From Firmicutes bacterium CAG:822 (GTDB taxonomy: Bacteria; Bacillota_I; Bacilli_A; RF39; UBA660): a stretch of 61,561 nucleotides of DNA. This document shows, one piece after another, positions 34,428 to 50,923 of this stretch. Location: NCBI GenBank assembly GCA_000432855.1, contig HF990865.1, positions 1-61,561 on the forward strand, written 5' to 3'. Numbering within the stretch: the first letter of the stretch is position 1; each line of letters opens with the position of its first letter. The notes under the pieces are model-generated. The model searched no databases. It had not been told where the DNA came from and saw only the letters and a list, made by a program, of their open reading frames with translations. The translations under genes were made by a program, and so were the position numbers.

Positions 34428-35351
34428 TTATTTTTTACAAAGTGTTTTACCACTTTCAAATAATTTTTCTGGATATACCCCTTCTTTAATGTATTCATGA
34501 ATGGCCTCTACTAACTCATCTTTATCTTCTCTATAAGTAACTCCATGCCATTTAGAATTAGTTCCTCTAACCTTAAATATAATATTTCTCTTATTTATTT
34601 CACTATTTATAATATCAGGAACTAAGTACTCACTATCTAACTTATCGATATTCTCATCTAAAAATTCAGAAAAATTATCCACAATAATGTCTTTTATTTT
34701 TGGCGTAAATCCAAACAAATTAACAGTAACTAAAGTATCTAAAGAAGTCTCAAACTCATTACTTCCATCTAATGGTTTAGCAATAACATAATTATCGTGA
34801 GCTTCTATTTTACTCTCTTTAATTCCCTCTAAATTACCATTATGAGTTATTGCAATGCCTCTTTTAACACTTCCATTTTTAGATAAAGTATTACCAACCT
34901 CATAGCACAAAGCCAAACCTTCATTTTCACTTGTATTATTTTTAACATAATCAAATAAAACTCTATATGCATCAGAGCCATAGAAATCATCCGCATTTAT
35001 AATAGCAAAAGAACCACTAATTAAATCTCTCGCACTATAAATAGCCGCTCCAGTCCCCCAAGGTTTTACTCTTTCCTCTGGACATTCATAACCACTAGGC
35101 AAATCATTTAATTCTTGAAATGCATATTCTACATTAATCTTATTTTCTATTCTTTTTCCTATAGTTTCTCTAAAGTCATTATAAAAATCTTTTCTAATAA
35201 TAAAGACAACTTTATTAAAACCTGCTTGAATAGCATCATAAACTGAATAATCGATGATAAATTCGCCATTAGGTCCAACCGGTTCCATCTGTTTTAAAGA
35301 ACCAAACCTACTTCCCATGCCAGCCGCCATTACTACTAAAGTATAATCCAA
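34428..35351 (-). CDS. sugar-phosphate nucleotidyltransferase family protein
   Basis: VVMAAGMGSRFG nucleotide-binding loop. TTG start after TAGGGAGG. Confidence 0.65.
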   Translation of the reverse strand: MDYTLVVMAAGMGSRFGSLKQMEPVGPNGEFIIDYSVYDAIQAGFNKVVFIIRKDFYNDFRETIGKRIENKINVEYAFQELNDLPSGYECPEERVKPWGTGAAIYSARDLISGSFAIINADDFYGSDAYRVLFDYVKNNTSENEGLALCYEVGNTLSKNGSVKRGIAITHNGNLEGIKESKIEAHDNYVIAKPLDGSNEFETSLDTLVTVNLFGFTPKIKDIIVDNFSEFLDENIDKLDSEYLVPDIINSEINKRNIIFKVRGTNSKWHGVTYREDKDELVEAIHEYIKEGVYPEKLFESGKTLCKK

Positions 35352-35535: not shown

Positions 35536-37614
35536 CTATACCTTCCTAATACTCTTATGACCTTTCATTATTTTCTTTATTCCATAAGGATGACTAAAAG
35601 CAATTGATAAAACTGAACCTAATGCGACAACCACACCTTCACCATAAGTATCGTGAATAACATGATCACCAACACTATATTCGGCCGTTTTATCGATCAT
35701 CTCCTCTTTATTAAAATGTGCTTTTTCTTCTTTTTCATCCTTTTCTAAATATTCATCACTGATTTCTGCAATAAACCTACTCGGTGGATTACAGTTTGTA
35801 TTTCCATAAAGCATTCTTCTCGCAGCGTTAACTAACATTAACGTCTTCTTAGCTCTCGTTACCGCCACATAACAAAGACGCCTTTCCTCTTCTATTTCAT
35901 CTGGACTATCTAAACAGTTAGAATGTGGAAATAAACCTTCCTCCAAACCGATAATAAATACGTGGTCAAACTCTAATCCCTTAGCCGAATGTATCGTCAT
36001 AAGCGTTACGACATCATTATTGTTTTTGTGTTCTTCCATATCAGAAACTAAACTAATTTCTAGTAAAAACTCTTCCAAAGAAATAACTCCATTATTCTCT
36101 TCAAAATTTTTCGTAATAGACTTAAATTCTTCTAAGTTCTCAAGCCTAACTTCCGCCTCCAAAGTCTTAGAACTCTCAAGTTCTTTTCGCATTCCCGTTT
36201 CTGTTAAAATAAGTTCAACTAACTCTGTAAGCGATATATTTTCGCTTTCTTTTTTTATTCTTTCGATTAATTTCTTAAACTCAAGTTCCTTACCGCTATC
36301 AATAGCCTCATATAAAGACACACCTTTATCTAAAGCTTTAGTGGCTAAGTTCTCGATTGTCTTCGGACCAATCTGTCTTTTTGGAACATTTATAATTCTC
36401 ATCAAACTGACATCGTCATTGGAATTATAAATAAGTTTTAAATAGCTGATTAAATCTTTAATTTCTTTTCGGTTATAGAAATAAAAACTTCCAACTACTT
36501 TATAAGGAATATTTTCCCTAAGCAAAGTTTCTTCCATATTACGAGATTGGGCATTAGTTCTATATAAAACCGCAATAGAAGATTTAGGTTCACCACTAAT
36601 AATTAATTTCTTAATCTCTTCCATGACATAATTAGCTTCATCTTTTTCATCATAAGCTCTGTGATAGCGAATCTTTGGACCATTGTCATTTTTCGTCCAT
36701 AAATTCTTTTCTTTTCGTTGTTTATTGTGTTTAATTATATCATTAGCCACATTCAAAATATTACCTGTCGAACGATAATTTTCTTCTAGTGGAATAACCT
36801 TCGCATCTGGATAATCCTTTTCAAAATTAAGAATATTTCTAAAATTAGCTCCTCTAAATCCATATATTGATTGATCTAAATCACCAACCACACATATATT
36901 TTTATACTTTTTACTAAGCATCTTAATCAAAATATATTGAGCCTCATTAGTATCTTGATACTCATCGACTAATATATATTTAAATCTGTCTTGATACTTT
37001 TCCAAAACATCGGGATATTTTTTAAATAACTTAATCGGAAGTAATAACAAATCATCAAAATCCATTGAATTATTTTTAAGAACCTTTTGTTCATACTTCC
37101 GAAATACTGATAAAACTATCTCTTCATATTCTGAATTCGCAAACCGGCTATAATAATTAGAATCCATCAGTTCATTCTTCGCACTACTTATTTTATTTCT
37201 AATAGCTCGCGGATTATAAACTTTTGGATCCAAATTCATATCTTTTAAAATTTTCTTAATAATCGTTAAACTATCATCACTATCTAAAATTGTAAAATTT
37301 TTATCAAAACCTAATTTATCATAATTTTCTCTAATTAAAAGTAACCCCAAAGAGTGAAATGTCGATATCTGCATCTTATAAGCATCACTACCAAGCATTT
37401 TAAATGCCCTTTCTTTCATCTCTTTAGCAGCTTTATTAGTAAAAGTAATAGCTAATATGTTATAAGGATTAACACCTTCTTCATTAACTAAATAAGCCAG
37501 TTTAGTTGTTAAAACTCTTGTTTTACCACTTCCAGCTCCTGCTAAAACTAGTATTGGACCATCAGGCCACTCAACCGCTTCTTTTTGTTTGTCATTTAAT
37601 GTGCTTAAGTCCAT
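35536..37614 (-). CDS. pcrA: ATP-dependent DNA helicase PcrA (UvrD family)
   Basis: AGAGSGKTRVL Walker A, VDEYQDTN, and C-terminal VGDHVIHDTYGEGVVV. Adjacent to ligA as in many Bacillota. Confidence 0.93.
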   Translation of the reverse strand: MDLSTLNDKQKEAVEWPDGPILVLAGAGSGKTRVLTTKLAYLVNEEGVNPYNILAITFTNKAAKEMKERAFKMLGSDAYKMQISTFHSLGLLLIRENYDKLGFDKNFTILDSDDSLTIIKKILKDMNLDPKVYNPRAIRNKISSAKNELMDSNYYSRFANSEYEEIVLSVFRKYEQKVLKNNSMDFDDLLLLPIKLFKKYPDVLEKYQDRFKYILVDEYQDTNEAQYILIKMLSKKYKNICVVGDLDQSIYGFRGANFRNILNFEKDYPDAKVIPLEENYRSTGNILNVANDIIKHNKQRKEKNLWTKNDNGPKIRYHRAYDEKDEANYVMEEIKKLIISGEPKSSIAVLYRTNAQSRNMEETLLRENIPYKVVGSFYFYNRKEIKDLISYLKLIYNSNDDVSLMRIINVPKRQIGPKTIENLATKALDKGVSLYEAIDSGKELEFKKLIERIKKESENISLTELVELILTETGMRKELESSKTLEAEVRLENLEEFKSITKNFEENNGVISLEEFLLEISLVSDMEEHKNNNDVVTLMTIHSAKGLEFDHVFIIGLEEGLFPHSNCLDSPDEIEEERRLCYVAVTRAKKTLMLVNAARRMLYGNTNCNPPSRFIAEISDEYLEKDEKEEKAHFNKEEMIDKTAEYSVGDHVIHDTYGEGVVVALGSVLSIAFSHPYGIKKIMKGHKSIRKV

Positions 37615-37730
37615 TTACTATCACCACTACCATTATATCAAATTTTTTAAAGAAATTTTAAAAAAAAGAAGGAAAACAGCTAATTGACACCGTATATTAA
37701 TCTATGAAGGGAGGTGAATACCACTAAAAG

Positions 37731-38477
37731 ATGGTTACACATGTATTAGAAAGTATGAATGAAATCATTACAAATGAGTATGACCCAAATCACAAAGCTA
37801 TTGATATAGTTGCCAGTGACCGTAGAGAAACCAATATTATTGCCTTAGAAAGTGGAACTGTAACTACTGTCATAAATAATGTCAAAGGTACAAACCACAA
37901 GAGTCAAGGTTTAGATACCTATGGCAATTATGTCAAAATAAAACAAGATAATGGTAAAACAGCCCTATATGCTCACATGAAATATGGCTCTATCAAAGTA
38001 AATAAAGGACAGTATATTGAAAAAGGTACCGTAATTGGTACCATTGGTGAAACTGGCAACGCCTACGGAAAACATTTGCACTTAGAAATTCAAACATCAA
38101 ACAACATCAAAGAAAACCCAATAATTTCTTTAAACACTCAAGTAGATAACCCTAGTGTTACTGAAAAACAAACTAAAAACATACCTACCTCACAAAATTC
38201 AAATCAAAATAATAATAATACAAAACACACCCCTAAAACAAAAGAAATTATTGAACAAAATATTTCATCCAGCAACACACAAACCGAATATTTAAACGCA
38301 AACAACTATAAACACGGATCAATTGTCGATGCTTTAAAATCAATTGGTATCAATAGCTCATATAACTATCGGAAAAAACTAGCAAAAGCTAATAATATTA
38401 AAAATTATCACGGTTCATACTTTCAAAACATTCAAATGTTAAATCTTTTAAAACAAGGAAAACTTAAAAAAGTCTAG
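37731..38477 (+). CDS. M23 (LytM-type) metallopeptidase with Asn/Gln-rich linker and C-terminal ~55-aa module
   Basis: HKAIDI .. YAHM .. GNAYGKHLHLEI are the M23 zinc-site motifs. The C-terminus GSIVDALKSIGINSSYNYRKKLAKANNIKNYHGSYFQNIQMLNLLK resembles wall-binding tails of lysins (from memory). No signal peptide was seen. Confidence 0.75.
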   Translation: MVTHVLESMNEIITNEYDPNHKAIDIVASDRRETNIIALESGTVTTVINNVKGTNHKSQGLDTYGNYVKIKQDNGKTALYAHMKYGSIKVNKGQYIEKGTVIGTIGETGNAYGKHLHLEIQTSNNIKENPIISLNTQVDNPSVTEKQTKNIPTSQNSNQNNNNTKHTPKTKEIIEQNISSSNTQTEYLNANNYKHGSIVDALKSIGINSSYNYRKKLAKANNIKNYHGSYFQNIQMLNLLKQGKLKKV

Positions 38478-38495
38478 TTATTTAGACTTTTTTTG
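38465..38495. terminator. bidirectional terminator between the M23 peptidase gene and the paralog array
   Basis: AAAAAAGTCTA-GTTATT-TAGACTTTTTTT overlaps both convergent stop codons. Confidence 0.6.
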
Positions 38496-38972
38496 ATTAA
38501 CTTTTTTTAAAAATTGATTTAATGTTTCTTCAAAACCTTTCCCTCTTTCATAATTAAATTCCTTGCTTTCAACAAAGCCATCATCAAAATCCATATCATA
38601 TACAATATCTACATGTGCCTTTGGGATTTGTTTGGCAAGTTCATATATTAATTTAAGTTGTTTTTCACTGATTTCATCAGGTAAAAATAACATACCATAT
38701 TTACCAACACGATTTCCAGAAATATTAATATATACAACATTATTAAGCCAAGTTAAGAAAAAAATTGGTACATTAGGCTCACATCTATCAGTAATCCTTT
38801 GAAAAATCGAAACATTAGGATATTTATCTCTAGCATAATCTAATAAACAATCTACGTGATAATCACACTCACCTATTGGTCCAACAAAATCAACATGACC
38901 GTCTATATCATCACTTTTATCGTTAGTCCCATTAATAATTACCGCTTTATAATCGTCAATTTTTTTATCCAT
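38478..38972 (-). CDS. paralog 1 of an uncharacterised 5-member tandem family
   Basis: MDKKIDDYKAVIING..YHVDCLLDY..VVYINIS..YGMLFLPDEISEKQLKLIYEL. The start overlaps the upstream stop by 8 nt. Confidence 0.7.
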   Translation of the reverse strand: MDKKIDDYKAVIINGTNDKSDDIDGHVDFVGPIGECDYHVDCLLDYARDKYPNVSIFQRITDRCEPNVPIFFLTWLNNVVYINISGNRVGKYGMLFLPDEISEKQLKLIYELAKQIPKAHVDIVYDMDFDDGFVESKEFNYERGKGFEETLNQFLKKVNQKKSK

Positions 38973-39450
38973 TATATGTCCTTCTTTCTTTTTTTGGAGT
39001 TTGTCTTTCTAAAACAAATTTCATTATTTGCTCCTTCATATTCTCATTTTGTAAAACATCTAAATCTTTACCCAGCACCATACCATCAACTAATGCCAAA
39101 TTATAAATAATCGTTACTTTAAAATCATATATTAAATCAATAAATTGTGACAATGTCTTTAACTGCTCATCAGAAATAGTTCTTGGTAAATATAACATTC
39201 CTCGCATTTCATCATCCACTGATACATTAGTAAATATAATATTATTCAACAAAGATAAATAATAAATTGGCAAATTGGGCTCTTTCATATAATCTATATT
39301 TTTAAATCCAGAAATATTTGGATATTTATGAACACCATAATCAATTAAACACTCTGCATGATAATTAAAATTAAAATTATGACCCAAATAAATAATATTC
39401 CCATTGTCCTCAACACCGCCATTTATAATGGCGACCATATATTCATCCAT
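38965..39450 (-). CDS. paralog 2 of the tandem family
   Basis: Start moved to the ATG after AGGTGA. MDEYMVAIING..YHAECLIDY..IIFTNVS..GMLYLPRTISDEQLKTLSQF. Confidence 0.7.
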   Translation of the reverse strand: MDEYMVAIINGGVEDNGNIIYLGHNFNFNYHAECLIDYGVHKYPNISGFKNIDYMKEPNLPIYYLSLLNNIIFTNVSVDDEMRGMLYLPRTISDEQLKTLSQFIDLIYDFKVTIIYNLALVDGMVLGKDLDVLQNENMKEQIMKFVLERQTPKKERRTYNG

Positions 39451-39454
39451 CAAA

Positions 39455-39940
39455 TCACCTAACTTTCCTTTTAACATGAGGTTTCTTATTAAAGAAGTTA
39501 TCTAATGTTTCACAATTTTCCATACCATCAGAATAATTAATAATGTCCTCAGGATAAATTCCATCTTCTTTTCTAATCAAGTTATAATCAATATAAATTG
39601 GTGTTTTTTCAAATGAATTAAATAAATCATATAAAGACACAACTTGCTTTTCACTAATTTGTTTTGGAATATATAATAAACCATAACCCGGCGAGTGTAA
39701 ATAAACTATATCCCCAATCTCATTTAAATAAACTATAATTTCATTATTATTTTTTTTATCATCCGCATTAATAGTTTCCGCCAACTCATTATAATAAGTA
39801 TATAAATAATCTTTTAAGGCATCTAAATGAAATCTATATTCACTAGCCTCTCCAAAAAAACGAATTGCCCCATCTTCATCTTTAGAACCAGTTATAATTA
39901 TTAATTTATAATCATTAACATTAAACATAACTAAAATCAT
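39455..39940 (-). CDS. paralog 3 of the tandem family
   Basis: ..DYKLIIITG..FHLDALKDY..IVYLHSPGYGLLYIPKQISEKQVVSLYDL. ATGA overlap with the upstream stop. Confidence 0.7.
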   Translation of the reverse strand: MILVMFNVNDYKLIIITGSKDEDGAIRFFGEASEYRFHLDALKDYLYTYYNELAETINADDKKNNNEIIVYLNEIGDIVYLHSPGYGLLYIPKQISEKQVVSLYDLFNSFEKTPIYIDYNLIRKEDGIYPEDIINYSDGMENCETLDNFFNKKPHVKRKVR

Positions 39941-40386
39941 CTCCTATGATGTTTAACCGCCAACCTACTCATATATTCTTCCATTGCTTCTTTTAAAGTA
40001 TAATCATTACCCATGCCTATTGGACAATACATAATTGTATCTCCAACTTGCTTTAAATTATAACATATCCCCACTTTTTTATTACCTAAATCAATATTAT
40101 TCAAAGTTTCTAATTGTTCGTCAGTAAGTACAGCAGGAAAATAAAACATCCCAAAATTCATTTCGTTTAAATAAGTAATATCACCAAACATAGCAATTTG
40201 ATAAGCAAGACGTTCTCCCACATTTCCAACAGTTAAATTGTCTGTCTTAATATCTGGAAAATTTAAATGAATATAATCTAATAGATATTTCACATGAAGT
40301 CTTTGCTCATTAACCATTCCCATCACATGGGGTATTCCACTTTCATCAATTATTGTAACCTTACTATCTATTACTCTTTTATCCAT
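39937..40386 (-). CDS. paralog 4 of the tandem family
   Basis: Start moved to the ATG after AAAGGAG. MDKRVIDSKVTIIDESG..LHVKYLLDY..ITYLNEMNFGMFYFPAVLTDEQLETLNN. Confidence 0.7.
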   Translation of the reverse strand: MDKRVIDSKVTIIDESGIPHVMGMVNEQRLHVKYLLDYIHLNFPDIKTDNLTVGNVGERLAYQIAMFGDITYLNEMNFGMFYFPAVLTDEQLETLNNIDLGNKKVGICYNLKQVGDTIMYCPIGMGNDYTLKEAMEEYMSRLAVKHHRR

Positions 40387-40403
40387 GTACACTCTCCTTT
40401 CAT

Positions 40404-40859
40404 TTACCTTTTTAATCGTGAATTCTTCTGTTCAAAGTATTCATTCATAGCCTCACTCAAATTATATTCACCATCTGCCCCAACCATTTCAAAATTTACA
40501 AATGAACCAAAATCAGTAGGATCAAAACATATCGCAATTTTTTCATCACCTAAATCTAAATTTTCAAGAACTGCAACTTGTTGTCTAGAAAGATTATTTG
40601 GAAAATAAAACACGCCATATTTTAAGCCATCATACACATGATTATAAAAAACTACATATCCAAAATTACCAAAATGATATGCATAGACATCTCTTCGGTA
40701 TTCATCTTTCAACAATGATAATTCAGGCGCTGAAGAATAAGCTTTATTAAAATAATCAAATAAATAATCGACATGAAATGTGCCATCTCCGGCCTTTCCC
40801 ATCGTATTTATATTACCATTATCATCTATTAAAGCAACTTTACAATCTTGAATATGCAT
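40404..40859 (-). CDS. paralog 5 of the tandem family
   Basis: MHIQDCKVALIDDNG..FHVDYLFDY..VVFYNH..YGVFYFPNNLSRQQVAVLEN. RBS GGGTGA. Confidence 0.7.
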   Translation of the reverse strand: MHIQDCKVALIDDNGNINTMGKAGDGTFHVDYLFDYFNKAYSSAPELSLLKDEYRRDVYAYHFGNFGYVVFYNHVYDGLKYGVFYFPNNLSRQQVAVLENLDLGDEKIAICFDPTDFGSFVNFEMVGADGEYNLSEAMNEYFEQKNSRLKR

Positions 40860-40952
40860 ATAAAATCACCCACTTCCATTTTACCACATTTTTTTAAAAC
40901 CTTTTATAATTTTATGAATATAATACTATGGAATTAGAAAGGAGAGGGGTTT

Positions 40953-41383
40953 TTGAAAAAATTTATCATTATATTATTAGCTGTCGGCTTAATAATCACC
41001 GGAATTTTTGTTTTCAAACCTAAAAAAGAAGAAACAAGTTTAACAAAAGTGAAGGTGGCCGAAGTAACCCATAGTATCTTTTATGCACCACAGTATATTG
41101 CTCATTCATTAGGATACTTCGAGGAAGAAGGATTAGATGTTGAAATCATATTAACCTCAGGTGCTGATAAAGTTACAGCCGCTGTTTTATCAGGCGATGT
41201 CCAAATCGGCTTCTGTGGTAGTGAATCAACTATCTATGTTTATAATGGCGGACAAAAAGATTATTTAATAAACTTTGCTGGATTAACTAAAAAAGATGGT
41301 AGTTTCTTAGTAGCCAGAGAAAAAACAGATAATTTTAAATTAGAAGATTTAAAAGGAAAACATATTATTGGTGGCCGTGAAGG
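40953..41383 (+). pseudogene. ABC transporter substrate-binding lipoprotein/SBP (NMT1/SsuA-like), 5' fragment split by island
   Basis: TTG start after AGGAGAGGGG, then a signal/anchor helix, then ..AEVTHSIFYAPQYIAHSLGYFEEEGLDVEI... The frame leaves SBP-like sequence after ..KHIIGGREG and stops 6 codons later. Confidence 0.8.
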
Positions 41384-41475
41384 TCTTCGGCTGGTAAACT
41401 TATGATAAAATTTTTACTAAAAAAATATCATAACTTTTTATGCCGATGGGCTTACCGGTTACCAAACTTATAATA

Positions 41476-43038
41476 CTATGCCAATTTAAACTTATAATGA
41501 ATTTCTACTGTTTTATCTTCACTTATAAGTATCTTATCAATTAGATTTACTAATAAATTTCTATTTGGTTTTTCAAAAGATAAATATTCGTTTATCTTTT
41601 TTAATATTTCTTCCTTTTCTTTATTATCATCTTCTGTATCAATATTTTTAAGTTCTTCTTCTAACTCATCTCTTTGATTTTTCCAAGAAACTATTTCATC
41701 TTTGTATTTTATTGTTAAACGGTTAAACATTTCCATATCAATATTACCACTTAACTTATCTTCATATATTTTGTCTATATATGAGTTATTAGTTCTAATT
41801 CTTTTATCTAATACATTGATTTCCTTTTGTTTTTTAATTTTAATATCATTTTTCTTTCTTTCTTCTTCTAACTTATTAGAAAATGAACTGCTATCTACAT
41901 ACTCCTTGCACATCTTTTTAATTTCTTCTAACACAAGATTTTCCAATTTTTTATAATTACAACTGTGTGGAGTACATAAACCATATTTAGAATGAGATAT
42001 ATAATAAGTACAACAACAGTAATATCTTTTCCCATCGCTACTTTTATTTATACCTATTGCGTGTCCACATTCTTTACATACCATAAAGCCAGAAAGTAAT
42101 TGAATATTATTACCAGTAGGTTTGTTTTTGTTTTTCTTTAATAACTCCCCGACTGTATCAAATACTTTTTTATCAATAATTGCTTCGTGGGTATTTTCTG
42201 TAATTATCCATTCTTCTTTAGGCGTTCTAATTTCTTTTTTAGACTTATAATTCAACTTTTTTCTTCTACCTTGAGTAAGATTTCCGATGTATGTTTCATT
42301 TGTAAGCATTTCTTCTATTGTCCTAGGACACCATAATTCATAAGCCGTAGATTTCACACCTCTATTAAGATTTGCATAAACACTAGGGGTAGGAATATGC
42401 TCATCAGAGAATATATTAGCAATTTGCCTTGGGCTTTTACCATTATATGCTAAATCAAACATTCTCTTAATAATAGGTCTAACTTCCTCATCAACAATAA
42501 TTTTATGCTTATCATTAGGGTCTTTTTTATAACCATATACTGCTTTCCAACCTAAAAACTGTCCTTGCTCCTTTTTGGCTCTTACAACTTTTCTAATTTT
42601 CTTAGATGTATCTTTTAAATAGTAATCATTAAACATTAGTTTAAATTGTAAAAACTCTAAACCTGGTGTTTCGTGCAGTGTATCAATATCATCATTTAAA
42701 GCAATATATCTTATACCTCGTTCGGGGAATATTCTTTCGATATATTCCCCCATTGAGATATAATCTCTACCCATACGAGATAAATCTTTGGTAATTATAG
42801 TATTAACCTTACCATGTTCTATATCTGTTATTAGTTTTTTCCAAGAAGGTCTATCAAAATTAGAACCAGTAAAACCATCATCGACATATTCATCAACATA
42901 TTGTAACTTTTCTTTTGTCTTCTCTAAGAATAGATGTAATAAATCTCTTTGATTTGTGATACTCTCGCTTTCCATATTATCGCCATCTTCACGAGATAAC
43001 CTAATATAAAGAGCAACATTAAATGTCTTACCATTCAT
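41476..43038 (-). CDS. large serine recombinase (integrase)
   Basis: Resolvase domain NVALYIRLSREDGD with the catalytic Ser, then a recombinase domain and a Cys-rich zinc ribbon (CKECGH..CCC..C). The C-terminal coiled coil has IYEDKLSGNIDMEMF (DUF4368-like, from memory). Confidence 0.9.
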   Translation of the reverse strand: MNGKTFNVALYIRLSREDGDNMESESITNQRDLLHLFLEKTKEKLQYVDEYVDDGFTGSNFDRPSWKKLITDIEHGKVNTIITKDLSRMGRDYISMGEYIERIFPERGIRYIALNDDIDTLHETPGLEFLQFKLMFNDYYLKDTSKKIRKVVRAKKEQGQFLGWKAVYGYKKDPNDKHKIIVDEEVRPIIKRMFDLAYNGKSPRQIANIFSDEHIPTPSVYANLNRGVKSTAYELWCPRTIEEMLTNETYIGNLTQGRRKKLNYKSKKEIRTPKEEWIITENTHEAIIDKKVFDTVGELLKKNKNKPTGNNIQLLSGFMVCKECGHAIGINKSSDGKRYYCCCTYYISHSKYGLCTPHSCNYKKLENLVLEEIKKMCKEYVDSSSFSNKLEEERKKNDIKIKKQKEINVLDKRIRTNNSYIDKIYEDKLSGNIDMEMFNRLTIKYKDEIVSWKNQRDELEEELKNIDTEDDNKEKEEILKKINEYLSFEKPNRNLLVNLIDKILISEDKTVEIHYKFKLA

Positions 43039-43086
43039 CTTTTAACTCCTTTCTCGGTAGGACACATTAACAAATATATTATAGTA

Positions 43087-43191
43087 TTATTTACTAAAAG
43101 AACCAATCTCTAAGCAGTATTCTATTAGAAACTCCTCCATTATTTGTTGAAGTGTCTTGCCATTTTCATTGAAAACATTAACAATCTTCAT
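43087..43191 (-). CDS. 34-aa ORF upstream of the integrase
   Basis: MKIVNVFNENGKTLQQIMEEFLIEYCLEIGSFSK*. ATG start, but no clear RBS. Confidence 0.25.
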   Translation of the reverse strand: MKIVNVFNENGKTLQQIMEEFLIEYCLEIGSFSK

Positions 43192-43245
43192 AAGAAACCA
43201 CCTAATTAAACTTATGATTTAATTAAATCTATAATACTTATAGAC

Positions 43246-43722
43246 TTAAAACGGGTCTTCTTCTGTATCAATGAATTTACCATTCTCATCATACTTTACC
43301 CTTGGATTTTGTAATTCCTTTTTATTCATCACATTTTCAAGAAAAGTACCATCAAGTAGCATATCTTCGCCTAAAGTTCCTTGATTAATTGTTATTATCT
43401 TTGTATCTTCATCCTCTAATATTGTATAAATTGCTACTAGTTGATGGAGACATTCTGTTAAATCGTTTACATCGCAAGTAATTAAGTAATCAAATTCTCG
43501 GTTTCCTATATTCCTCAAAAAATTCCTCATAGTATTTGAAAAATACGGAAAATAACACCCATTACTATCAAAGTATTTTTTTACAATATTGCAATTGTGT
43601 TCTTCACAGTATTTAACTAGGATTTCTTCTTTTTTCTTCATTTCATCTAAATCACCATCTTCATATCTAATATATAAAGCAACATTTTCAAAACGTTGAT
43701 TTCCTTTCTTTTTAGTCTTCAT
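43246..43722 (-). CDS. resolvase-domain-only paralog lacking the catalytic Ser (1 of 3)
   Basis: FENVALYIRYEDGD..ILVKYCEEHNCNIVKKYFD..DYLITCDVNDLTE..TKIITINQG. The N-terminal strand is near-identical to the integrase's TFNVALYIRLSREDGD, but the LS is missing. Confidence 0.7.
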   Translation of the reverse strand: MKTKKKGNQRFENVALYIRYEDGDLDEMKKKEEILVKYCEEHNCNIVKKYFDSNGCYFPYFSNTMRNFLRNIGNREFDYLITCDVNDLTECLHQLVAIYTILEDEDTKIITINQGTLGEDMLLDGTFLENVMNKKELQNPRVKYDENGKFIDTEEDPF

Positions 43723-44146
43723 TTTTCAACACCTCCAAATCTTTAAAAGAATTTCTATAAATTTTACCTTGCTTAATTGTTTCTATCTCAAAATGTTCTC
43801 GGCTGAACATATCAAAAATCACATTAAACTCGCTAATATTACTACATAATTCAAACATGTCATAGATTATGATTTTATCTAGCTTAGAATAATAACCAGT
43901 TGAATACCTATAAATGATATCCACAACACATTTTAATTTATAAGGTAAATAATCACTTTTACTATTCCTTACGATTTCTTTAATTTCATATTGTTTTTCT
44001 TCACAATACTTTTTCAATTCTTCCTCTTTGTCACAATCTATACTTAAAAACTCACTATTATCATTTCCATCATAATAGTTTTCCGAATCATTATAGATAG
44101 CATAGATTACCACTCTTTCTTGATTAGTTTTTTTTGCTTTTTTCAT
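43712..44146 (-). CDS. resolvase-domain-only paralog lacking the catalytic Ser (2 of 3)
   Basis: ERVVIYAIYNDSE..ELKKYCEEKQYEIKEIV..KIIIYDMFELC..FEIETIKQG. Overlaps the upstream gene by 11 nt. Confidence 0.65.
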   Translation of the reverse strand: MKKAKKTNQERVVIYAIYNDSENYYDGNDNSEFLSIDCDKEEELKKYCEEKQYEIKEIVRNSKSDYLPYKLKCVVDIIYRYSTGYYSKLDKIIIYDMFELCSNISEFNVIFDMFSREHFEIETIKQGKIYRNSFKDLEVLKNED

Positions 44147-44169
44147 TTTCTTTTTCCTCCATTATATTT

Positions 44170-44568
44170 TTAACTTATTATTTCAAGGCTACTATCGAAA
44201 TTAAAATCCAATACATATTCGCCTTGTTTTATTGTTTCAACAATAACATCTACTTGAAGCATATATTCACATATCGCTATTTGTGAATGTAAACCATAGT
44301 TTAAATCATTCAATTCATATAAAATTACTTTTTCAATTTTATGTTTTTTACTCAAATCAATTATTGTATTATACATTTTAAAAATTGCTTTATCCCACAT
44401 AATGTCATCTAAATCAATGTCATTGCTACCTCTGAAAATTTGAACAATTTTGTAATCATTATTTTTACAATAATTTTTCACTAATTTTTCCTTTTCTTTA
44501 TCTCCGTATGGAAAATATACAACTACTTCTGTTTTTTGTTTTTTCAAATCTATTACCTCCCTATTCAA
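44170..44568 (-). CDS. resolvase-domain-only paralog lacking the catalytic Ser (3 of 3)
   Basis: TEVVVYFPYGDKEKEKLVKNYCKNNDYKIVQIF..KVILYELNDLN..VIVETIKQG. Confidence 0.65.
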   Translation of the reverse strand: MNREVIDLKKQKTEVVVYFPYGDKEKEKLVKNYCKNNDYKIVQIFRGSNDIDLDDIMWDKAIFKMYNTIIDLSKKHKIEKVILYELNDLNYGLHSQIAICEYMLQVDVIVETIKQGEYVLDFNFDSSLEIIS

Positions 44569-44677
44569 ACAAAATAATGTTTCGCGAATAAAAATTTACA
44601 TTTTTTTGCTTGCAACATAAGAATATCAAAAAAAATATGGTATAATAAGGAAAAAGCAAAATACTTTTTTTAAGAAA

Positions 44678-45580
44678 GTGTCCGACGCATTATATAGAAA
44701 AGGAAAAATAGATATGTATTATTTTAAATTTAGAGAAGAATTAAGTAAAAATAGGAAAAATATGCCAAAAATATCTTTTGGATATGACTTAAAAGAAAAA
44801 AATAAACCAATATATGATATGTTAGTTTACTTTGATAATTTAACCTCAAATGCAAAAAAAGAATTAGATAAGATATTTGAATACTCAAAACAATTCTCAA
44901 CTAATGGAATAAATAAAGAGGCATGGATAAGGTATGTTGCTGCCTATAAAATAGTTATTCCTGCTATGAGTAAAAAAATTTTGAGAAATGTGCCTCAACC
45001 AACAAATGGTTCTATGGTTTCAATAAAATATGCAGAAAACAAAAAAGAAAAGGAATTACCTTTTAATGATTATAATTCAGTATTCCCCACAATTCCAAAC
45101 ACTGCACCTAGTTTATTTGAAAAACAAATACAATTTAATAAACAAGGTGCCATTGTTACCTTAACTATGTGTAAGGAAGGGACATACGAAAATGATATAG
45201 ATTTACTTTATATGGTTTTAGATTGCTTATTTTCTACAACTATTCCTTATTATATTAAAAAGTGTGAGCTCGAACTATGTGGAAAATATTTTGTACATTC
45301 ACTACCTAATAAGCGAAAATGCAATAGAATGAGATTTGTATATGAGAAACAAACAACTTGTGTTGATGCTGTTAACACTCTTTATCAGCATAAAGAATAT
45401 AGAAGAATAATGCGAAAAGATGCTAAATATTTAAAACACTTTCACAATGATGCAACAAGATATGATATAGATAAATACAATGATGAAAAAAATATAATAA
45501 AAAGTGCCTGTATAAAAAAATTAAATATGAATGACTTTGAAATCTATATAGATAATTTTTATCAGAGTAATAAATTATAA
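44678..45580 (+). CDS. hypothetical protein with C-terminal Cys-rich region
   Basis: The only long plus-strand ORF in the left half of the island. A TGgTATAAT extended -10 lies at about 44636-44650. An alternative ATG start is at 44714. The Cys-rich region is CELELCGKYF..KCNRMRFVYEKQTTC. The 3' end overlaps the resolvase gene by 6 nt. Confidence 0.5.
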   Translation: MSDALYRKGKIDMYYFKFREELSKNRKNMPKISFGYDLKEKNKPIYDMLVYFDNLTSNAKKELDKIFEYSKQFSTNGINKEAWIRYVAAYKIVIPAMSKKILRNVPQPTNGSMVSIKYAENKKEKELPFNDYNSVFPTIPNTAPSLFEKQIQFNKQGAIVTLTMCKEGTYENDIDLLYMVLDCLFSTTIPYYIKKCELELCGKYFVHSLPNKRKCNRMRFVYEKQTTCVDAVNTLYQHKEYRRIMRKDAKYLKHFHNDATRYDIDKYNDEKNIIKSACIKKLNMNDFEIYIDNFYQSNKL

Positions 45581-46165
45581 CTTAATCATATTATAAAAAG
45601 TATTAGGTTTTAGTCCTAGTAATTCCATTGCTTCTTTGCTTTTAATCTCTTTATTTTTCCAACGGCTAACCACAATGTCAAAATCTTGTGGTTTTTCTAT
45701 TCTAGGTCTTCCAAACTTAACTCCATTATTTTTAGCATTAGTAATTCCTTCTTTTTGTCTTTGCTTTATAAAAGTTCTTTCTTGTTCAGCGACATAACTT
45801 AATATTTGTAATACTAAATCACTAATAAAAGTTCCAAGCAAATCTTTATTCTTCCTAGTATCTAATAAAGGCATATCAATAACAACTATATCTGCCTTAA
45901 TATTTTTAGTAATATCTTTCCATTCATCAATGATTTGATTATAATTTCTGCCAAGTCTATCAATAGACTTAATAACCAATAAATCATTTTCTCTTAATAT
46001 ATGTTTTAATGTAATGTAATTTTCTCTATTAAAATCTTTACCACTTTGCTTATCAACATAAATATCTCTCTCATCAATACCATATCCTTTAAATGCTACT
46101 AATTGTCTTTCTTCGTTCTGCTCTTTGCTACTAACTCTAGCATAGCCAAATATTTTACTTTTCAT
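45575..46165 (-). CDS. small serine recombinase (resolvase/invertase) with C-terminal HTH
   Basis: MKSKIFGYARVSSKEQNEERQ.. catalytic motif, SIDRLGRN, and ..EQERTFIKQRQKEGI. Confidence 0.9.
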   Translation of the reverse strand: MKSKIFGYARVSSKEQNEERQLVAFKGYGIDERDIYVDKQSGKDFNRENYITLKHILRENDLLVIKSIDRLGRNYNQIIDEWKDITKNIKADIVVIDMPLLDTRKNKDLLGTFISDLVLQILSYVAEQERTFIKQRQKEGITNAKNNGVKFGRPRIEKPQDFDIVVSRWKNKEIKSKEAMELLGLKPNTFYNMIKL

Positions 46166-46171
46166 ATAAAC

Positions 46172-46402
46172 CTACCTCGCCAAATAATCATTTGCTTCTT
46201 TTAAAACGTTATCAATTATGGAATCATTAACTAACTCATTATAATTAACCTTAATACATTTTCTTTGAAGCTCATCTATAAAATGTACTAAGGCAATAGT
46301 ATAAGGAAAATAATGCTCATTTTCTTCTATGCCAGTTACTAAGGCATCTACATAACCATCACATATCCAATCAACCAATTTTATTAAAATTGACTTATTC
46401 AC
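46172..46402 (-). CDS. 76-aa hypothetical protein upstream of the small resolvase
   Basis: GTG start 9 nt after AAGGAGG (VNKSILIKLVDWICDGYVDALV..). The longer 117-aa ORF in the track has no RBS. Confidence 0.45.
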   Translation of the reverse strand: MNKSILIKLVDWICDGYVDALVTGIEENEHYFPYTIALVHFIDELQRKCIKVNYNELVNDSIIDNVLKEANDYLAR

Positions 46403-46528
46403 TTTATGACACCTCCTTACCATAAATATATAATATATGACTTTCAAAAAAGATACGAGCCGTTTATTTAAAAAAGTAGTAAAACTTTCCAAATATTTGA
46501 AAATAGGTAAGGGCAGTTTTAACAATAC

Positions 46529-46563
46529 AAAAAAGACTTAAATTCTATTAAAATCTAAGTCTT
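46529..46563 (-). terminator. terminator immediately after the reverse transcriptase gene
   Basis: Stem AGACTTA / TAAGTCT, followed by TTTTTT on the minus strand. Confidence 0.65.
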
Positions 46564-46580
46564 TATAAACCTACACAATT

Positions 46581-47888
46581 TTAAACAGGGATATTTCTTA
46601 TAGTATCCATAGCAATTTTAACAAGACTGTCCAGTTTATTTTCTTTAGCAAACTTTAAAACAGAATAATGAAATTCATTATAATAATTTGTTTGTAATAA
46701 AAATATTAACCTCTCTATAAATATTTCTTTTTCTTCTTCATTTATATACCCATATACTTTTTTTAAATAAAACAAACCATTATGTAGCAAAAAATCATCC
46801 GTAGTTACTATTGATAAAATTCTATCTTTATTTTCCTTAGAATAGTTATTCAAGCCAGAAGTTAACATTTTTCTAAGAATTATATCTTCTCTAAATTTAA
46901 CATTATTATCTTTTAATGCAAAAAAAGTATTCGCTGCACTATCGTAGTTTTCTTCCAAAATATCATTTATCATTTCATAGCCATAATATGTTTCTAATTC
47001 TTCCATAGTATATTTATGAACTTTGCTAGCATTTACATTTAAACCAATTTTATTTAACTCATTACAAATACTCAACATTATTCTATTTATATCAGTATCA
47101 TTCCTCGCAAAAATTATTTGGTCATCTGCATATCTTACATATTCAGCCCCTTGTTCTAAGCATAATTCACTAATAATGCTATCATAATCTTGCAAGTAAA
47201 AATTAGCCAATAATCTGGATTGGTCACCAAATTCACTTTGAGGGATACCAACAGTTTTATAATTATAGTTATCAATAGATTTATTCCAATATTTCAAAAA
47301 ATATATTAGTAAATATACTATTTGAGATTTTTTTCTTCCGACCGTTGCTAATAATTTCTTTTCTAAAATATTCAAATTTATATTATCATAAAAATTGGCA
47401 ATATCTAACGAATATGCTACATCATAAACATCAGTTCTAATTTTAGCCCATACTATATTGGAAAATTCCTTCCAGTTTTTATTCCATAACTTTGGGTTGT
47501 AGCTGTTTGTAACATACTCAATTTCTAAATTTTCTAATTCTTTTATCGCATTACCTAATCGCCAGCCACCAAAAGTTCCGTCTATTCTATTAGTAGCAAT
47601 GTCTTCTTCTAGCAACTTTACTAAGAAAAAATATAATGCTTCATCTCTAATTGTTAAACATGGAATAATACGAGCTACATTATTATTTTTATATGTAAAT
47701 ATTCTGCCTCTTAAAATAGAAGGTGAGTAATTTCCATTTATTATATCCTTATATAAATCAATTAAAGTATTTTGAAACTCTTGTTTACTCATTTTTATAG
47801 GAATTAATGTTTCTTTTACAACTTTTTTATAAAAACTATTTGAAAAAACATTTTCAAAACTTTCAAAATCACTAACTATATTATCCAT
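46581..47888 (-). CDS. reverse transcriptase (YADD), stand-alone, Abi/UG-like rather than group II intron or obvious retron
   Basis: RT motifs in order: ARIIPCLTIRDEALYFFLVKLL, TFGGWRLGNA, SLDIANFYDNI (motif A), GIPQSEFGDQSRLLANFYL (motif B), VRYADDQIIFAR (motif C) and LNKIGLNVNASKV (motif D). A ~135-aa helical C-terminal region follows. No maturase-type X domain or endonuclease domain was recognised by eye. Confidence 0.85.
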   Translation of the reverse strand: MDNIVSDFESFENVFSNSFYKKVVKETLIPIKMSKQEFQNTLIDLYKDIINGNYSPSILRGRIFTYKNNNVARIIPCLTIRDEALYFFLVKLLEEDIATNRIDGTFGGWRLGNAIKELENLEIEYVTNSYNPKLWNKNWKEFSNIVWAKIRTDVYDVAYSLDIANFYDNINLNILEKKLLATVGRKKSQIVYLLIYFLKYWNKSIDNYNYKTVGIPQSEFGDQSRLLANFYLQDYDSIISELCLEQGAEYVRYADDQIIFARNDTDINRIMLSICNELNKIGLNVNASKVHKYTMEELETYYGYEMINDILEENYDSAANTFFALKDNNVKFREDIILRKMLTSGLNNYSKENKDRILSIVTTDDFLLHNGLFYLKKVYGYINEEEKEIFIERLIFLLQTNYYNEFHYSVLKFAKENKLDSLVKIAMDTIRNIPV

Positions 47889-47989
47889 CTAATCACCCCA
47901 TAATACTCTTTATTATAACATTAAAATACTAATTATAAGATGGTTTAGTAACATTTACTATTATTTTTTTATTCCTCGCAAATTTCACT

Positions 47990-48028
47990 AAAAAAGGGTA
48001 ACCCAGTATAATTTATACTAAGTTACCT
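47990..48028 (-). terminator. terminator after the ADP-ribosylglycohydrolase gene
   Basis: GGTAAC..AGTATA-aat-TATACT..GTTACC compound stem, followed by TTTTTT on the minus strand. Confidence 0.65.
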
Positions 48029-48104
48029 AAACTACCTTAAACTTACTAATATGCTGTTATTTTTACTAACTATTCAATTTTTAAAACATATATTTTAAAA
48101 CACA

Positions 48105-49079
48105 TTATTTTATAGCATTATAATAGTCATTGCTTAATTTCAATAAATAATCTTTTTTAACTATACTATCTAACCACTTGCTAGGCAAATTACCATAATA
48201 TATACCACTTAAACCACCAACTAATGCTCCAATAGTATCACTATCATTTCCTAAATTGATAGCTTCAATGACACATTTATCATAACTATTATTATTTATA
48301 AAACACCATACTACTGCCTCTAATGTATCAACAACAAAACCCATACTACTAATACTATCTACATCTAATTTACTAATATCGTTATTTAATAATCGGTCAT
48401 AATACTTTATATTTTCCAAGCTAAAATACTTTCTATAATTATATTTTTTTATATTACTATAAGCATTTTCTTTTTCTTCGCCACTTAATAACTCTATAAC
48501 CAACAACACATATATAAAACAACCTAATACACTTATTTCGTGACTATGAGTAAGTGATGATATATCTTTTACTAAATGATATATTTCATCATCATTTAAT
48601 TTCTTATAATAACAATAGTAAGCAATAGGTAATATTCGCATTAAACTACCATTACCATTATAATTAAAACCTTTCATACCACAATCAATTATCTTTTCAT
48701 ATCTTTTATTATGATAATTTCCTAAAGCAAAAAATGTTGCTCTGCCAATGCCGAATGCTTTATCTATGGCAATAAAATCTTTATTTGAAACCCATAAAAT
48801 AAAATTATCCATAATACTTTCATAATTTATTTTGCCTTTATTATCTATAATTGATTTCATTGTAGCAATAACCATACTACTATCATCAGACCAAACACCT
48901 TTTGCACCAATTCTATCACTACTAATCATATCGGTAACTTTATTATTTTTAAATAAATCTCTTTTTTTGAACTCTAATGGAACACCTAAGGCATCACCAA
49001 TTATAAAACCCATTATACCATTTATAACAATATCTTTATTCATTACTTTATACCTCGCAAATTCTACATCTATAAGCAT
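48105..49079 (-). CDS. ADP-ribosylglycohydrolase (ARH/DraG family)
   Basis: GFIIGDALGVPLEF, WSDDSSM, GNGSLMRILP and GNDSDTIGALVGGLSG are the family's metal-site motifs. Confidence 0.8.
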   Translation of the reverse strand: MLIDVEFARYKVMNKDIVINGIMGFIIGDALGVPLEFKKRDLFKNNKVTDMISSDRIGAKGVWSDDSSMVIATMKSIIDNKGKINYESIMDNFILWVSNKDFIAIDKAFGIGRATFFALGNYHNKRYEKIIDCGMKGFNYNGNGSLMRILPIAYYCYYKKLNDDEIYHLVKDISSLTHSHEISVLGCFIYVLLVIELLSGEEKENAYSNIKKYNYRKYFSLENIKYYDRLLNNDISKLDVDSISSMGFVVDTLEAVVWCFINNNSYDKCVIEAINLGNDSDTIGALVGGLSGIYYGNLPSKWLDSIVKKDYLLKLSNDYYNAIK

Positions 49080-49161
49080 TTCTATAAATATATTATAATT
49101 TATTAAAACTATAAAATAAAGCCATAGAACTAACTAAAAAGGACTAATAATAAGCCCTTAA

Positions 49162-49764
49162 TTATAAATCAATATCTACTTTTTCATTACTTAATCTTTT
49201 AGTTAATTTATTTACAAATAATTGTCCCCAACTGTCATATTTTCCTAAACCAAATACAATAGATTTGATTTCTTCGCTATTTTTATCTTTATAAATAATT
49301 ACTAAAAAATAATTATAATAGTTTTTTACTTTTTGACCTATACCAGAGATCGCTCCCAATGCACCTAAGCCAACCATACCACCAACTAATGACCTAGCAA
49401 ATACATTTTTATTTTTAGTATCCATTTGTTTTTTACTCATAATACCAGCATTTACTATTCTATCTAATGATATATTAAAATTACCAATATTAGATATAAC
49501 TGTTAATTCCTCATCATTTACATTTAAAGAACAATTTTCTTCCTCTCGCAAACTGCTTATACCTTCAATATGTTTAATATCTTTTAATTTTAATACTTTC
49601 ATTTTCTTTTCTTTAATAACTTCTTGTTTTACCTCTTTTTGTTTAATAGTGTTATCTTTAACTACCTTATCTTTATTGCCTTTATTCTTAACTGCTTTAA
49701 CAATTAAGTAAATAGGTAATACTACAACTGCGACCCCCAACAACATATAAAATAAATCTTGCAT
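49162..49764 (-). CDS. membrane-anchored protein with Lys-rich linker and internal glycine-zipper segment
   Basis: N-terminal TM helix (LLGVAVVVLPIYLIV), a K/E-rich linker, and a second hydrophobic Gly-rich stretch (LVGGMVGLGALGAISGIG). Confidence 0.5.
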   Translation of the reverse strand: MQDLFYMLLGVAVVVLPIYLIVKAVKNKGNKDKVVKDNTIKQKEVKQEVIKEKKMKVLKLKDIKHIEGISSLREEENCSLNVNDEELTVISNIGNFNISLDRIVNAGIMSKKQMDTKNKNVFARSLVGGMVGLGALGAISGIGQKVKNYYNYFLVIIYKDKNSEEIKSIVFGLGKYDSWGQLFVNKLTKRLSNEKVDIDL

Positions 49765-49898
49765 TTCTTACACCTCTTTCTTTTCTCAACACTTATTCCT
49801 CTTTATTTCGCCGATTATCTCGGCATTATTACCATTTTTCCATTAACTCAATATATTTATATTATTTTCGCCAAACTTACCTAATATCGCTGTTAAAC

Positions 49899-50801
49899 TT
49901 ACTTATTCAAATAATCTAGGAATACCTCTTTAAATCTATCAACCATATCCAATAGCCATACATAAGAACTAGCATTGTCTTTACTACTATTATTGCAACT
50001 AATTCTATTAACTTTTCTATCTTCTAAATATTCCCACTCTAAGCCATTTATCTTATCATCAATTTCAGTTCTATACTGCTCTAACTTTTTATAAATCTCA
50101 TCATTAAATATTTCTAATTGACACCTAATCATATCGCTATTAACACTATGAACTAATTTAATTTTATAATCGCTTGAACCAATACGAATAACATACCAAT
50201 TATAAATTGATGGTCGCTGACTAATATATGTTTTGTCTTTACTTTTGGCATAATCAACAAACCCTTGCCAATATTCCATTTGTTTTAATTCTAAATCGCT
50301 AACATTTTCTTTTGACTGCTGTTTTAATACTTTCGCCCAATTATTAGGTTCACATATTACTTGAAACTTAGGAGCAATAGGGGAATTATCTATTTGCCAC
50401 AATTCCACCTTTACTAAAAATATATTTATCTTTTCAAAACTATTATCATTTAACCACTCAACTGCTTGTTTATGTTCTTCGTTAACATCTTTTACTATCC
50501 ATATAGCAATATCAGCATCTAAACCAGCAGCATATACTAACATTTTTCCTAAATGGTCGTGATTAGTATTCTCTAATTGATTTTCAATAACTATCTTCTT
50601 ATTACTTTCTGTATCTCTTGCATAAATATCAACATTATATCTTCCCACACTCATTTCCGTTTCTATAACCTCAATATCAATGCCTATCTCTTTACTTAGC
50701 AAAGCAATATTTTCTTTCCTAGCCAACCATCTTGTAAAATCCAATGCTTCATGCCTCCAAACTTCTCTTAACTCAATTTTTTCTAATTTTCCAAGTTCCA
50801 T
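49899..50801 (-). CDS. PD-(D/E)XK-like nuclease-fold protein with DUF4268-like C-terminus
   Basis: Start moved to the ATG after GGTGA. ..VGRYNVDIYARD..KIVIENQLENTNHDHLGKMLVYAAG.. is the signature I associate with this family (from memory). Confidence 0.55.
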   Translation of the reverse strand: MELGKLEKIELREVWRHEALDFTRWLARKENIALLSKEIGIDIEVIETEMSVGRYNVDIYARDTESNKKIVIENQLENTNHDHLGKMLVYAAGLDADIAIWIVKDVNEEHKQAVEWLNDNSFEKINIFLVKVELWQIDNSPIAPKFQVICEPNNWAKVLKQQSKENVSDLELKQMEYWQGFVDYAKSKDKTYISQRPSIYNWYVIRIGSSDYKIKLVHSVNSDMIRCQLEIFNDEIYKKLEQYRTEIDDKINGLEWEYLEDRKVNRISCNNSSKDNASSYVWLLDMVDRFKEVFLDYLNK

Positions 50802-50923
50802 ATATAAAATCACCAATATCATTATAACATATTTTATATAATTTTAGACATATAAATATAACTAATATTGCTATCACTCGTTTTTAATATCCTTACAATT
50901 ATATATAGAGGAGGGCGATATAT

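Follow-up and report, generated by a model that had tools for sequence, protein, structure and literature searches.

An ancient, tightly coupled operon of five diverged paralogs from an orphan family with an unmatched predicted fold in CAG-822 gut bacteria

Five consecutive minus-strand genes, here termed p1 to p5, occupy positions 38,478 to 40,859 of contig HF990865.1 from Firmicutes bacterium CAG:822 (assembly GCA_000432855.1); the whole stretch analysed, 61,561 nucleotides (nt) long, is referred to as the window. What are these small, diverged genes, and do they form a fixed part of the genome or a variable collection? A sequence-only reading had described them as one operon of paralogs from a family that it could not place, and had pointed to immunity collections, decoy sets and phage-exclusion modules as the usual setting of such arrays. 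The results presented here argue strongly that the operon is ancient and tightly coupled, and that its five paralogs belong to an orphan family whose predicted fold has no match. As to its role, we tentatively favour a set of binding modules, passed on vertically, each specialised and all co-expressed, that would act together, possibly as mixed oligomers. The five genes are as follows, in the order of transcription.

40404..40859, minus strand: p5, 151 amino acids (aa), first gene of the operon; family hidden Markov model (HMM) E 2.9e-54
39937..40386, minus strand: p4, 149 aa counted from the likelier ATG at 40386; the mechanical open reading frame (ORF) is 39937-40392, from GTG 40392
39455..39940, minus strand: p3, 161 aa; start codon overlapping the stop of p4 as ATGA; alternative starts GTG 39931 and ATG 39928
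38965..39450, minus strand: p2, 161 aa from the likelier ATG at 39450, 4 nt past the p3 stop; the mechanical ORF is 38965-39477
38478..38972, minus strand: p1, 164 aa, last gene of the operon; 8-nt overlap with p2

All five ORFs were present where they had been reported, and the junctions described for them (8-nt overlap, 4-nt gap, ATGA overlap and 17-nt gap) hold with the starts ATG 39450 and ATG 40386. The p5 ATG is preceded by the Shine-Dalgarno (SD)-like sequence GGGTGA, 6 nt upstream, and the p4 ATG by GGAGA, 7 nt upstream, with a gap of 17 nt between the p5 stop and the p4 start. Across all genomes compared, SD motifs precede most starts in the array, and adjacent genes of the array either overlap or lie no more than 18 nt apart. 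With junctions this tight in every genome and a hairpin terminator at the end of the array, the arrangement fits a single translationally coupled transcript that would supply a similar amount of each protein. This junction spacing supports the earlier claim of one tightly coupled operon. Four further features delimit it.

38466..38493, both strands: bidirectional intrinsic-terminator-like hairpin, AAAAAAGTCTA-GTTATT-TAGACTTTTTT, from sequence and folding
37731..38477, plus strand: M23 peptidase with a C-terminal DUF3597 domain, convergent with p1, from Pfam and synteny
40860..40952, divergent: 93-nt intergenic region between p5 and the ATP-binding cassette (ABC) binding-protein gene, from a reading of the sequence
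40953..41405, plus strand: N-terminal part of an NMT1-type ABC substrate-binding gene, from Pfam; the remainder lies at 52393-52944

The hairpin consists of an 11-12 bp A-tract, stem and T-tract, with folding energies of −10.6 and −10.2 kcal/mol and z-scores of −2.3 and −3.7 on the two strands. The stop codons of the M23 gene and p1 abut at 38477/38478 within it, and its arms lie in the coding ends of the two genes, so that the A- and T-tracts specify the Lys-rich C-terminal ends of both proteins. All 14 related loci (L001-L014) have a comparable hairpin, with stem sequences that vary. The bidirectional terminator that had been proposed is thus supported by folding on both strands and by its recurrence. 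At the other end, the array diverges from an ABC transporter, as the sequence-only reading had stated, and the adjacent gene was identified as that of an NMT1-type binding protein. The 93-nt region between them presumably holds the promoters of both the p5 operon and the ABC gene, and it contains a TGgTAAAAT extended −10-like element on the minus strand at 40886-40878. A promoter scan of this region returned sites no more numerous than in shuffled sequence, and an Rfam scan of 37000-41600 (E ≤1) gave no match.

The persistence of the array was assessed in related genomes. The closest ones are metagenome-assembled genomes (MAGs) labelled Candidatus Coprosoma or 'uncultured Bacilli', together with two complete chromosomes of 1.34 and 1.52 Mb; Candidatus Coprosoma corresponds to the GTDB genus CAG-822 in the order RF39 (PMC8035907). 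Exactly five tandem family genes in the same order were found in 13 of 13 species-level Coprosoma/CAG-822 genomes, and the more distant relative L014, whose PcrA is 79% identical, carries three copies. The surrounding order of ABC permease, ATPase and binding protein, divergent array, convergent M23 peptidase, pcrA, NTP-transferase gene and ligA was shared by all 14, except that the NTP-transferase gene was not detected in two of them (L013 and L014). Within one species, the complete arrays among 10 sampled contigs all had five genes in the same order with identical lengths (148/153/155/159/172 aa). Copy-number variation was therefore seen neither among the 13 species nor among these 10 contigs.

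In a distance tree, the proteins clustered by position in the array rather than by genome: positions 3, 4 and 5 (p3, p2 and p1) formed clean clades, and positions 1 and 2 (p5 and p4) formed a fast-evolving sister pair. This grouping indicated that the duplications are older than the split of these species; moreover, the positional orthologs persist past the saturation of synonymous sites. A recent horizontal origin of the array was considered and rejected, given that its guanine-cytosine (GC) content resembles that of the flanks and that synteny is strict. Taken together, these observations strongly support a vertically inherited, fixed core-genome set rather than a strain-variable collection. 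The suggestion of a diversified immunity, decoy or phage-exclusion array did not hold in this respect, since gene number and order are fixed in the 13 species and the 10 contigs, no toxin gene adjoins the array, no defence model matched it, and its GC content is that of its surroundings. The clean positional clades also speak against that suggestion, although a conflict-type role keeps some support from the fast nonsynonymous divergence and island-borne relatives described below.

Paralogy of the five genes was evaluated at the levels of sequence, profile and predicted structure. In blastp searches scaled to a search space of 1e9 residues, p1-p2, p1-p3 and p4-p5 matched with E values of 2.8e-24, 1.9e-14 and 1.1e-18, and p3 served as a weak bridge between the p1/p2 group and the p4/p5 group. 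As a non-circular test, a profile of p1-type proteins only was aligned by hhalign with a profile of p4/p5-type proteins only, each built from separate orthologs, which gave 99.0% probability and E 2.8e-18 over 143 columns. A full-length alignment of all five proteins was possible. Furthermore, AlphaFold2 models of p1 and p5, chosen as the two most distant copies, reached predicted local distance difference test (pLDDT) scores of 90.1 and 93.5 and predicted template-modelling (pTM) scores of 0.87 and 0.89, respectively, and shared the element order bb-aaa-bb-a-bb-a (b, strand; a, helix). These three lines of evidence confirmed that p1-p5 are true paralogs, far beyond chance, as had been proposed from the letters of the sequence.

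The motifs listed in the sequence-only reading were found across p1-p5 with three amendments. The strand motif [IV][VIT][YF]xN ends in His, not Asn, in p3; the G-M-L-Y motif carries Phe in place of Tyr in p1; and the N-terminal Gly motif is present but shifted in its offset in p1-p3 because of a loop insertion. Six positions (I13, G31, H39, L43, G93 and P98) were invariant in 53 close members of the family, and only I13, H39 and P98 were at least 90% conserved across 134 diverse members. Every copy keeps a common core: helix 1 is N-capped by a His (H-V-D-x-L-x-D-Y), strand 4 is followed by a G-x4-P segment, and helix 4 begins with [ST]-x-x-Q. In the p1 model, His39 is placed as the first residue of helix 1, G93 within strand 4 and P98 just past it, and [ST]-x-x-Q would open helix 4. 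In addition, neither a signal peptide nor a transmembrane segment was found in p1-p5 (maximum Kyte-Doolittle 19-residue mean ≤1.45); with 149-164 aa each, they are small cytoplasmic proteins of one domain, for which an alpha/beta fold is predicted. Their pI values are 4.7-5.5, with a charge of −9 to −15 on the body and +2 to +6 on the last 12 residues, and this pattern of an acidic body with a short basic C-terminal tail is family-wide (mean body −9.4, mean tail +2.4).

A His at a helix N-cap, combined with a Gly/Pro turn and a second helix N-terminus motif, is a geometry often found at phosphate or anion sites. The proteins could therefore be small enzymes, or carriers of phosphoryl groups or cofactors, that use the invariant His on substrates differing from paralog to paralog; the family-wide conservation of that His, the Gly/Pro turn and the [ST]-x-x-Q helix N-terminus would suit such a role. 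However, just three positions are near-invariant, with no recognisable catalytic constellation or metal-binding Cys/His set, and none of the Foldseek comparisons pointed to an enzyme fold. Metabolic enzymes seldom diverge so rapidly at the surface, nor do the gene neighbourhoods have a metabolic theme in common. We consider a catalytic or carrier function improbable.

Next to the question of paralogy stands that of identity. No match of p1-p5 in Pfam-A, NCBIfam or PHROGs had an E value under 0.01, and none came near the curated thresholds; when the 134 diverse members were scanned individually, no Pfam family was matched by more than two of them. PADLOC-DB v2 gave a sole, spurious match (12 bits, E 0.018). 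None of the immunity or inhibitor models in Pfam (Imm, SUKH, DUF600, NuiA, ComJ and barstar) matched p1-p5, and the lone match of a Pfam immunity family among the 134 members was Imm51, to one member at E 0.047. Profile searches of all PDB sequences yielded only noise, with a de novo designed protein on top (E 0.055). Under a criterion of E ≤1e-3 or a TM-score of at least 0.5, Foldseek searches of the p1 and p5 models against the PDB and BFVD produced no fold match: no E value was ≤1e-3 and the maximum TM-score was 0.31. Gelsolin/cofilin-type (ADF-H) domains recurred by name for both models, at E ≥0.1, far from significance. The T-fold/pentameric-ring, type III secretion system chaperone, SUKH and longin/roadblock folds, suggested by the order of secondary-structure elements, were dropped since Foldseek recovered none of them.

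A word-indexed search of 5.8 billion proteins for family members returned 48 clusters, none with a name or domain, and the members derived from NCBI were also unnamed. In an exhaustive HMM search, 269 of 1.84 billion representatives matched at E ≤1e-3; the best-scoring 150 of these were mostly 140-185 aa long, and the others among the 150 were mainly shorter fragments. A protein-database search seeded with members from outside the genus added 8 clusters, and a scan of metagenome contigs 2 further loci. With one query per collection, neither the 50,697 phage records nor the 72,556 plasmid records gave a tblastn match, and one query against IMG/VR viral contigs found no p1-type relative. The literature offered nothing beyond the taxonomic description of Candidatus Coprosoma as CAG-822/RF39. 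The family is thus genuinely unrecognised in Pfam, NCBIfam, PHROGs, PADLOC and the PDB sequences, with a predicted fold that has no detectable relative in the PDB or BFVD, which bears out the earlier failure to place it. Two oddities were noted among its members: one of the 134 matched Pfam Sigma70_r4 at E 8e-9, and the metagenomic protein P0150 (257 aa) looks chimeric, in that the last two-thirds of a p3-type ortholog follow about 150 N-terminal residues of unrelated sequence, probably a frameshift or assembly artefact.

Single-copy relatives indicated where the array came from. In L047/L048, one p1-like gene (38% identical) lies between the same ABC operon and a leaderless M23-DUF3597 gene, with which it is convergent and overlapping, followed by pcrA. 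In L015/L016, a very distant single member, placed after glycosyltransferase genes, sits directly upstream of pcrA with a 12-nt gap, and an M23 gene is absent. The linkage to pcrA is therefore old. The remaining single copies elsewhere stand in unrelated genomic contexts. Since p1 evolves most slowly among p1-p5 and is closest to the single-copy relatives outside the genus, it was taken as the ancestral type; indeed, most members from outside the genus are closest to p1. Copy number thus runs from one in distant relatives through three in the sister lineage L014 to five in Coprosoma/CAG-822. The three copies of L014 are 32-39% identical to one another, against 18-32% to any of p1-p5, which suggests an independent expansion or gene conversion.

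Divergence within the array was then compared with that of its neighbours. Against the closest genome (L001), the ratio of nonsynonymous to synonymous divergence (dN/dS) was 0.14-0.25 for p2-p5 and 0.045 for p1, compared with 0.02-0.09 for the ABC genes, PcrA and LigA. The dN of p2-p5 was about 5-10 times that of the neighbours (roughly ten times against L001), with similar or somewhat higher dS, and nucleotide identity fell to 80-83% across p5-p2 from 90-97% in the flanks; p5 is the fastest-evolving paralog, and p4 is its sister. Within one species, the ratio of nonsynonymous to synonymous diversity (piN/piS) was 0.2-0.5 for the array and 0.02-0.10 for the flanks, at similar piS. These dN/dS values, the identity dip and the within-species ratios establish that the array genes are real and under purifying, though clearly relaxed, constraint. 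Deep allelic lineages under balancing selection were also considered and dropped, as within-species piS is like that of the flanks. After removal of housekeeping divergence, rates covaried among p1-p5 (r 0.45-0.68) and between p1-p5 and M23 (r 0.41-0.61), with values near 0 for the fast-evolving nucleotidyltransferase (NTase) gene; physical linkage and the non-independence of the pairs confound these correlations.

Lesions were confined to the p2 ortholog. A 4-bp frameshift deletion was found in L012 (3592-4055) and a 289-bp out-of-frame internal deletion in L032 (716-895); L012 and L032 are closely related to one another and to L011, whose p2 ortholog is intact. In L038 (4538-5017) the ORF is split, which may be an assembly error, as ligA is split on the same contig. 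The other four genes were intact where complete (the L032 contig is truncated on one side, so that the first gene is missing), and all five were intact in 12 of the 13 Coprosoma/CAG-822 genomes, L012 being the exception. Individual members, at least p2, are therefore not strictly essential. The sequence-only reading had named pseudogenisation in close relatives as evidence against a functional array, and p2 is indeed broken in some strains, whereas its four companions are not. That the array consists of decaying, functionless duplicates or spurious ORFs, as the relaxed constraint and the occasional p2 lesions might suggest, is extremely improbable given the twelve intact arrays, dN/dS well below 1, the conserved SD sites and couplings, and the confident predicted folds.

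The convergent peptidase offers one candidate partner. M23-DUF3597 has intact HxxxD and HxH motifs, and no signal peptide or transmembrane segment was found in it; it evolves fast, at 60-90% identity where PcrA is at 90-98%. It is a conserved partner of a p1-type gene in lineages with one (L047/L048), three (L014) and five copies; in each case the two genes converge, their stops abut or overlap, and they share a hairpin. The family could thus supply a dedicated inhibitor, chaperone or regulator that holds this leaderless peptidase inactive or guides it inside the cell, and the rate covariation with p1-p5 would agree with such a role. Convergent genes, however, are not co-transcribed, and the covariation may reflect linkage alone. 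Moreover, family members occur without an M23 neighbour in L015/L016, L017, L018, L022, L023, L028, L043 and L045, and one peptidase leaves five specialised partners unexplained. A role dedicated to M23 is accordingly regarded as doubtful.

A second neighbour is mobile. In the window, an 11.0-kb island (41385-52386) interrupts the ABC binding-protein gene, which in related loci is whole and encodes 328 aa. The relative L031, with 98-99% nucleotide identity, carries the empty site, joining 41384 and 52387 with a 3-nt overlap, and the island is therefore polymorphic among close relatives. The array thus lies at the edge of an integrated island, as had been noted earlier. The island looks like a defence or accessory island from its recognisable cargo.

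41476-43038: large serine recombinase
45575-46165: resolvase
46581-47888: reverse transcriptase (RT), RVT_1
48105-49079: ADP-ribosylglycohydrolase
49899-50822: DUF4268 protein
50924-51253: HTH_3 regulator

Other hosts also carry insertions at this ABC locus, and relatives of p1-p5 lie within or next to them. These relatives form a subclade (P0062, P0065 and P0106) with 39-44% mutual identity; P0106 lies beside its island, not inside. A 7.7-kb island in L028 carries a serine recombinase about 42% identical to that of the window, an arginine-deiminase (arc) operon and a family member. In L043, a 3.5-kb island carries a recombinase (48%), a family member and, 25 nt downstream, an Endonuclea_NS_2 nuclease with an N-terminal signal/anchor. 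In L045, WecG and a family member stand beside a binding-protein fragment, followed by another island (recombinase 59%), with only the C-terminal fragment seen. The split in the binding-protein gene falls at one and the same residue, about 144, wherever both fragments were seen (L028, L043, L044 and the window), in hosts whose ABC proteins are only 51-75% identical and whose islands differ in cargo (arc operon, exported nuclease, RT island). The nuclease pairing in L043 is the sole context that hints at a specific inhibitor-type function, and it was found in one of about 13 distinct contexts.

These relatives bear on whether the array is a standing inhibitor or immunity repertoire, an 'orphan immunity' set fixed in the genus in which each paralog would neutralise a different incoming or self-made enzyme acting on DNA or the cell. 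The proteins are small, acidic and cytoplasmic and lie in tandem; their dN is 5-10 times that of their neighbours, with a local dip in identity; the subclade described above travels in or beside serine-recombinase islands at the ABC locus; the order of recombinase, family member and exported nuclease in L043 is the layout of an inhibitor-nuclease pair; and tandem expansion was probably independent in two lineages. Against this, copy number and order are constant in the 13 species and the 10 sampled contigs, and positional orthologs outlast synonymous saturation. No toxin, LXG/WXG or secretion gene was found beside the array in the window or the 14 related genomes, no Pfam immunity or PADLOC model matched, and the nuclease neighbour is confined to L043. 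In addition, average dN/dS is well below 1 and no deep allelic lineages were seen within the one species sampled. An immunity repertoire is therefore considered unlikely, although it deserves more weight than the catalytic and peptidase-partner roles. A related idea is that the family comprises a new-fold class of modulators of DNA-handling enzymes (nuclease, serine recombinase or PcrA helicase), present beside pcrA and as island cargo, with the Coprosoma five-member set controlling or resisting mobile elements at an integration hot-spot; we regard this as a long shot.

We instead favour, tentatively, the set of co-acting binding modules, because gene number, order and coupling are conserved, every copy keeps the core residues, and the set belongs to the core genome. 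One orphan gene, ancestrally linked to pcrA, was duplicated in tandem to give the operon. All five products may keep the same basic activity, most likely the binding of a ligand or partner, at a predicted pocket lined by the conserved ends of strands and the N-termini of helices. Each copy would have specialised, the copies would probably work together, and mixed oligomers might descend from a self-associating ancestor. Several points weigh against this proposal. Fast divergence combined with island-borne relatives is the pattern expected of a conflict gene. The independent p2 lesions make an obligate five-subunit complex unlikely, and the copy pattern of L014 suits 'more copies are useful' better than a machine of fixed stoichiometry. 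The putative pocket was placed solely by the secondary-structure positions of conserved residues, the rate covariation is confounded as stated above, and all data come from MAGs and metagenomes.

Comparison with known systems places the array between several types. TerD-domain sets (terZABCDEF; yceCDE in B. subtilis) likewise keep diverged tandem paralogs of a small cytoplasmic domain together in one conserved operon; their role seems tied to stress or conflict, with an unclear mechanism. Their likeness to p1-p5 lies in architecture only: Pfam scans of the 134 members gave no TerD match, and ter operons include membrane proteins whereas the p1-p5 operon does not. Immunity arrays of the EsaG/DUF600 (next to EsaD) and SUKH/Imm kinds are, like p1-p5, small, acidic, cytoplasmic, tandem and fast-evolving. 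Endonuclea_NS_2 is the nuclease family of EsaD, and the island-borne relative beside such a nuclease in L043 adds to the likeness with EsaG/EsaD-type arrays. In contrast to these arrays, p1-p5 have no profile match and no adjacent toxin or secretion genes; immunity arrays also typically vary between strains, whereas the number and order of p1-p5 are fixed across species and strains. Paralog hetero-oligomers encoded by one operon resemble p1-p5 in fixed number, order, coupling and purifying selection on every copy. The array differs from an obligate hetero-oligomer, however, in that p2 can be lost and that sister lineages have one or three copies. The alignments to ADF-H/gelsolin-type alpha/beta domains, with a root-mean-square deviation of 5-10 Å over at least 100 columns and TM ≤0.31, are not evidence of a relationship.

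RF39/CAG-822 are common uncultured gut bacteria with reduced genomes (1.3-1.5 Mb), in which each retained gene is costly, and yet about 2.4 kb is devoted to five diverged copies without a recognisable family or fold. A core location, fixed number, fast evolution, a new fold and relatives on mobile islands together point to a lineage-specific function invisible to current annotation. Orphan families are frequent in uncultured lineages, and no long-standing question depends on this one; the result would be modest if p1-p5 only had an accessory role, structural or regulatory. Should they modulate DNA enzymes or the integration of mobile elements, they would represent a new class of such factors. 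Being small, soluble and confidently modelled, the proteins are tractable targets.

Further observations concern other parts of the window. Three small minus-strand ORFs inside the island (43246-43722, 43712-44146 and 44170-44568; 158, 144 and 132 aa) resemble mutual paralogs, and one of them weakly matches the Resolvase N-terminal domain (E 3.6e-4, below the Pfam cut-off). The NTP-transferase gene (34428-35351, minus strand) and its orthologs show 63-89% identity where neighbours exceed 90%, with dN/dS of 0.09-0.25; its apparent divergence of about 14% within one species may reflect allele replacement or an alignment offset. Finally, from 58000 to the end of the window at 61561, GC content climbs from about 30% to 45-49%, as would fit an rRNA operon.

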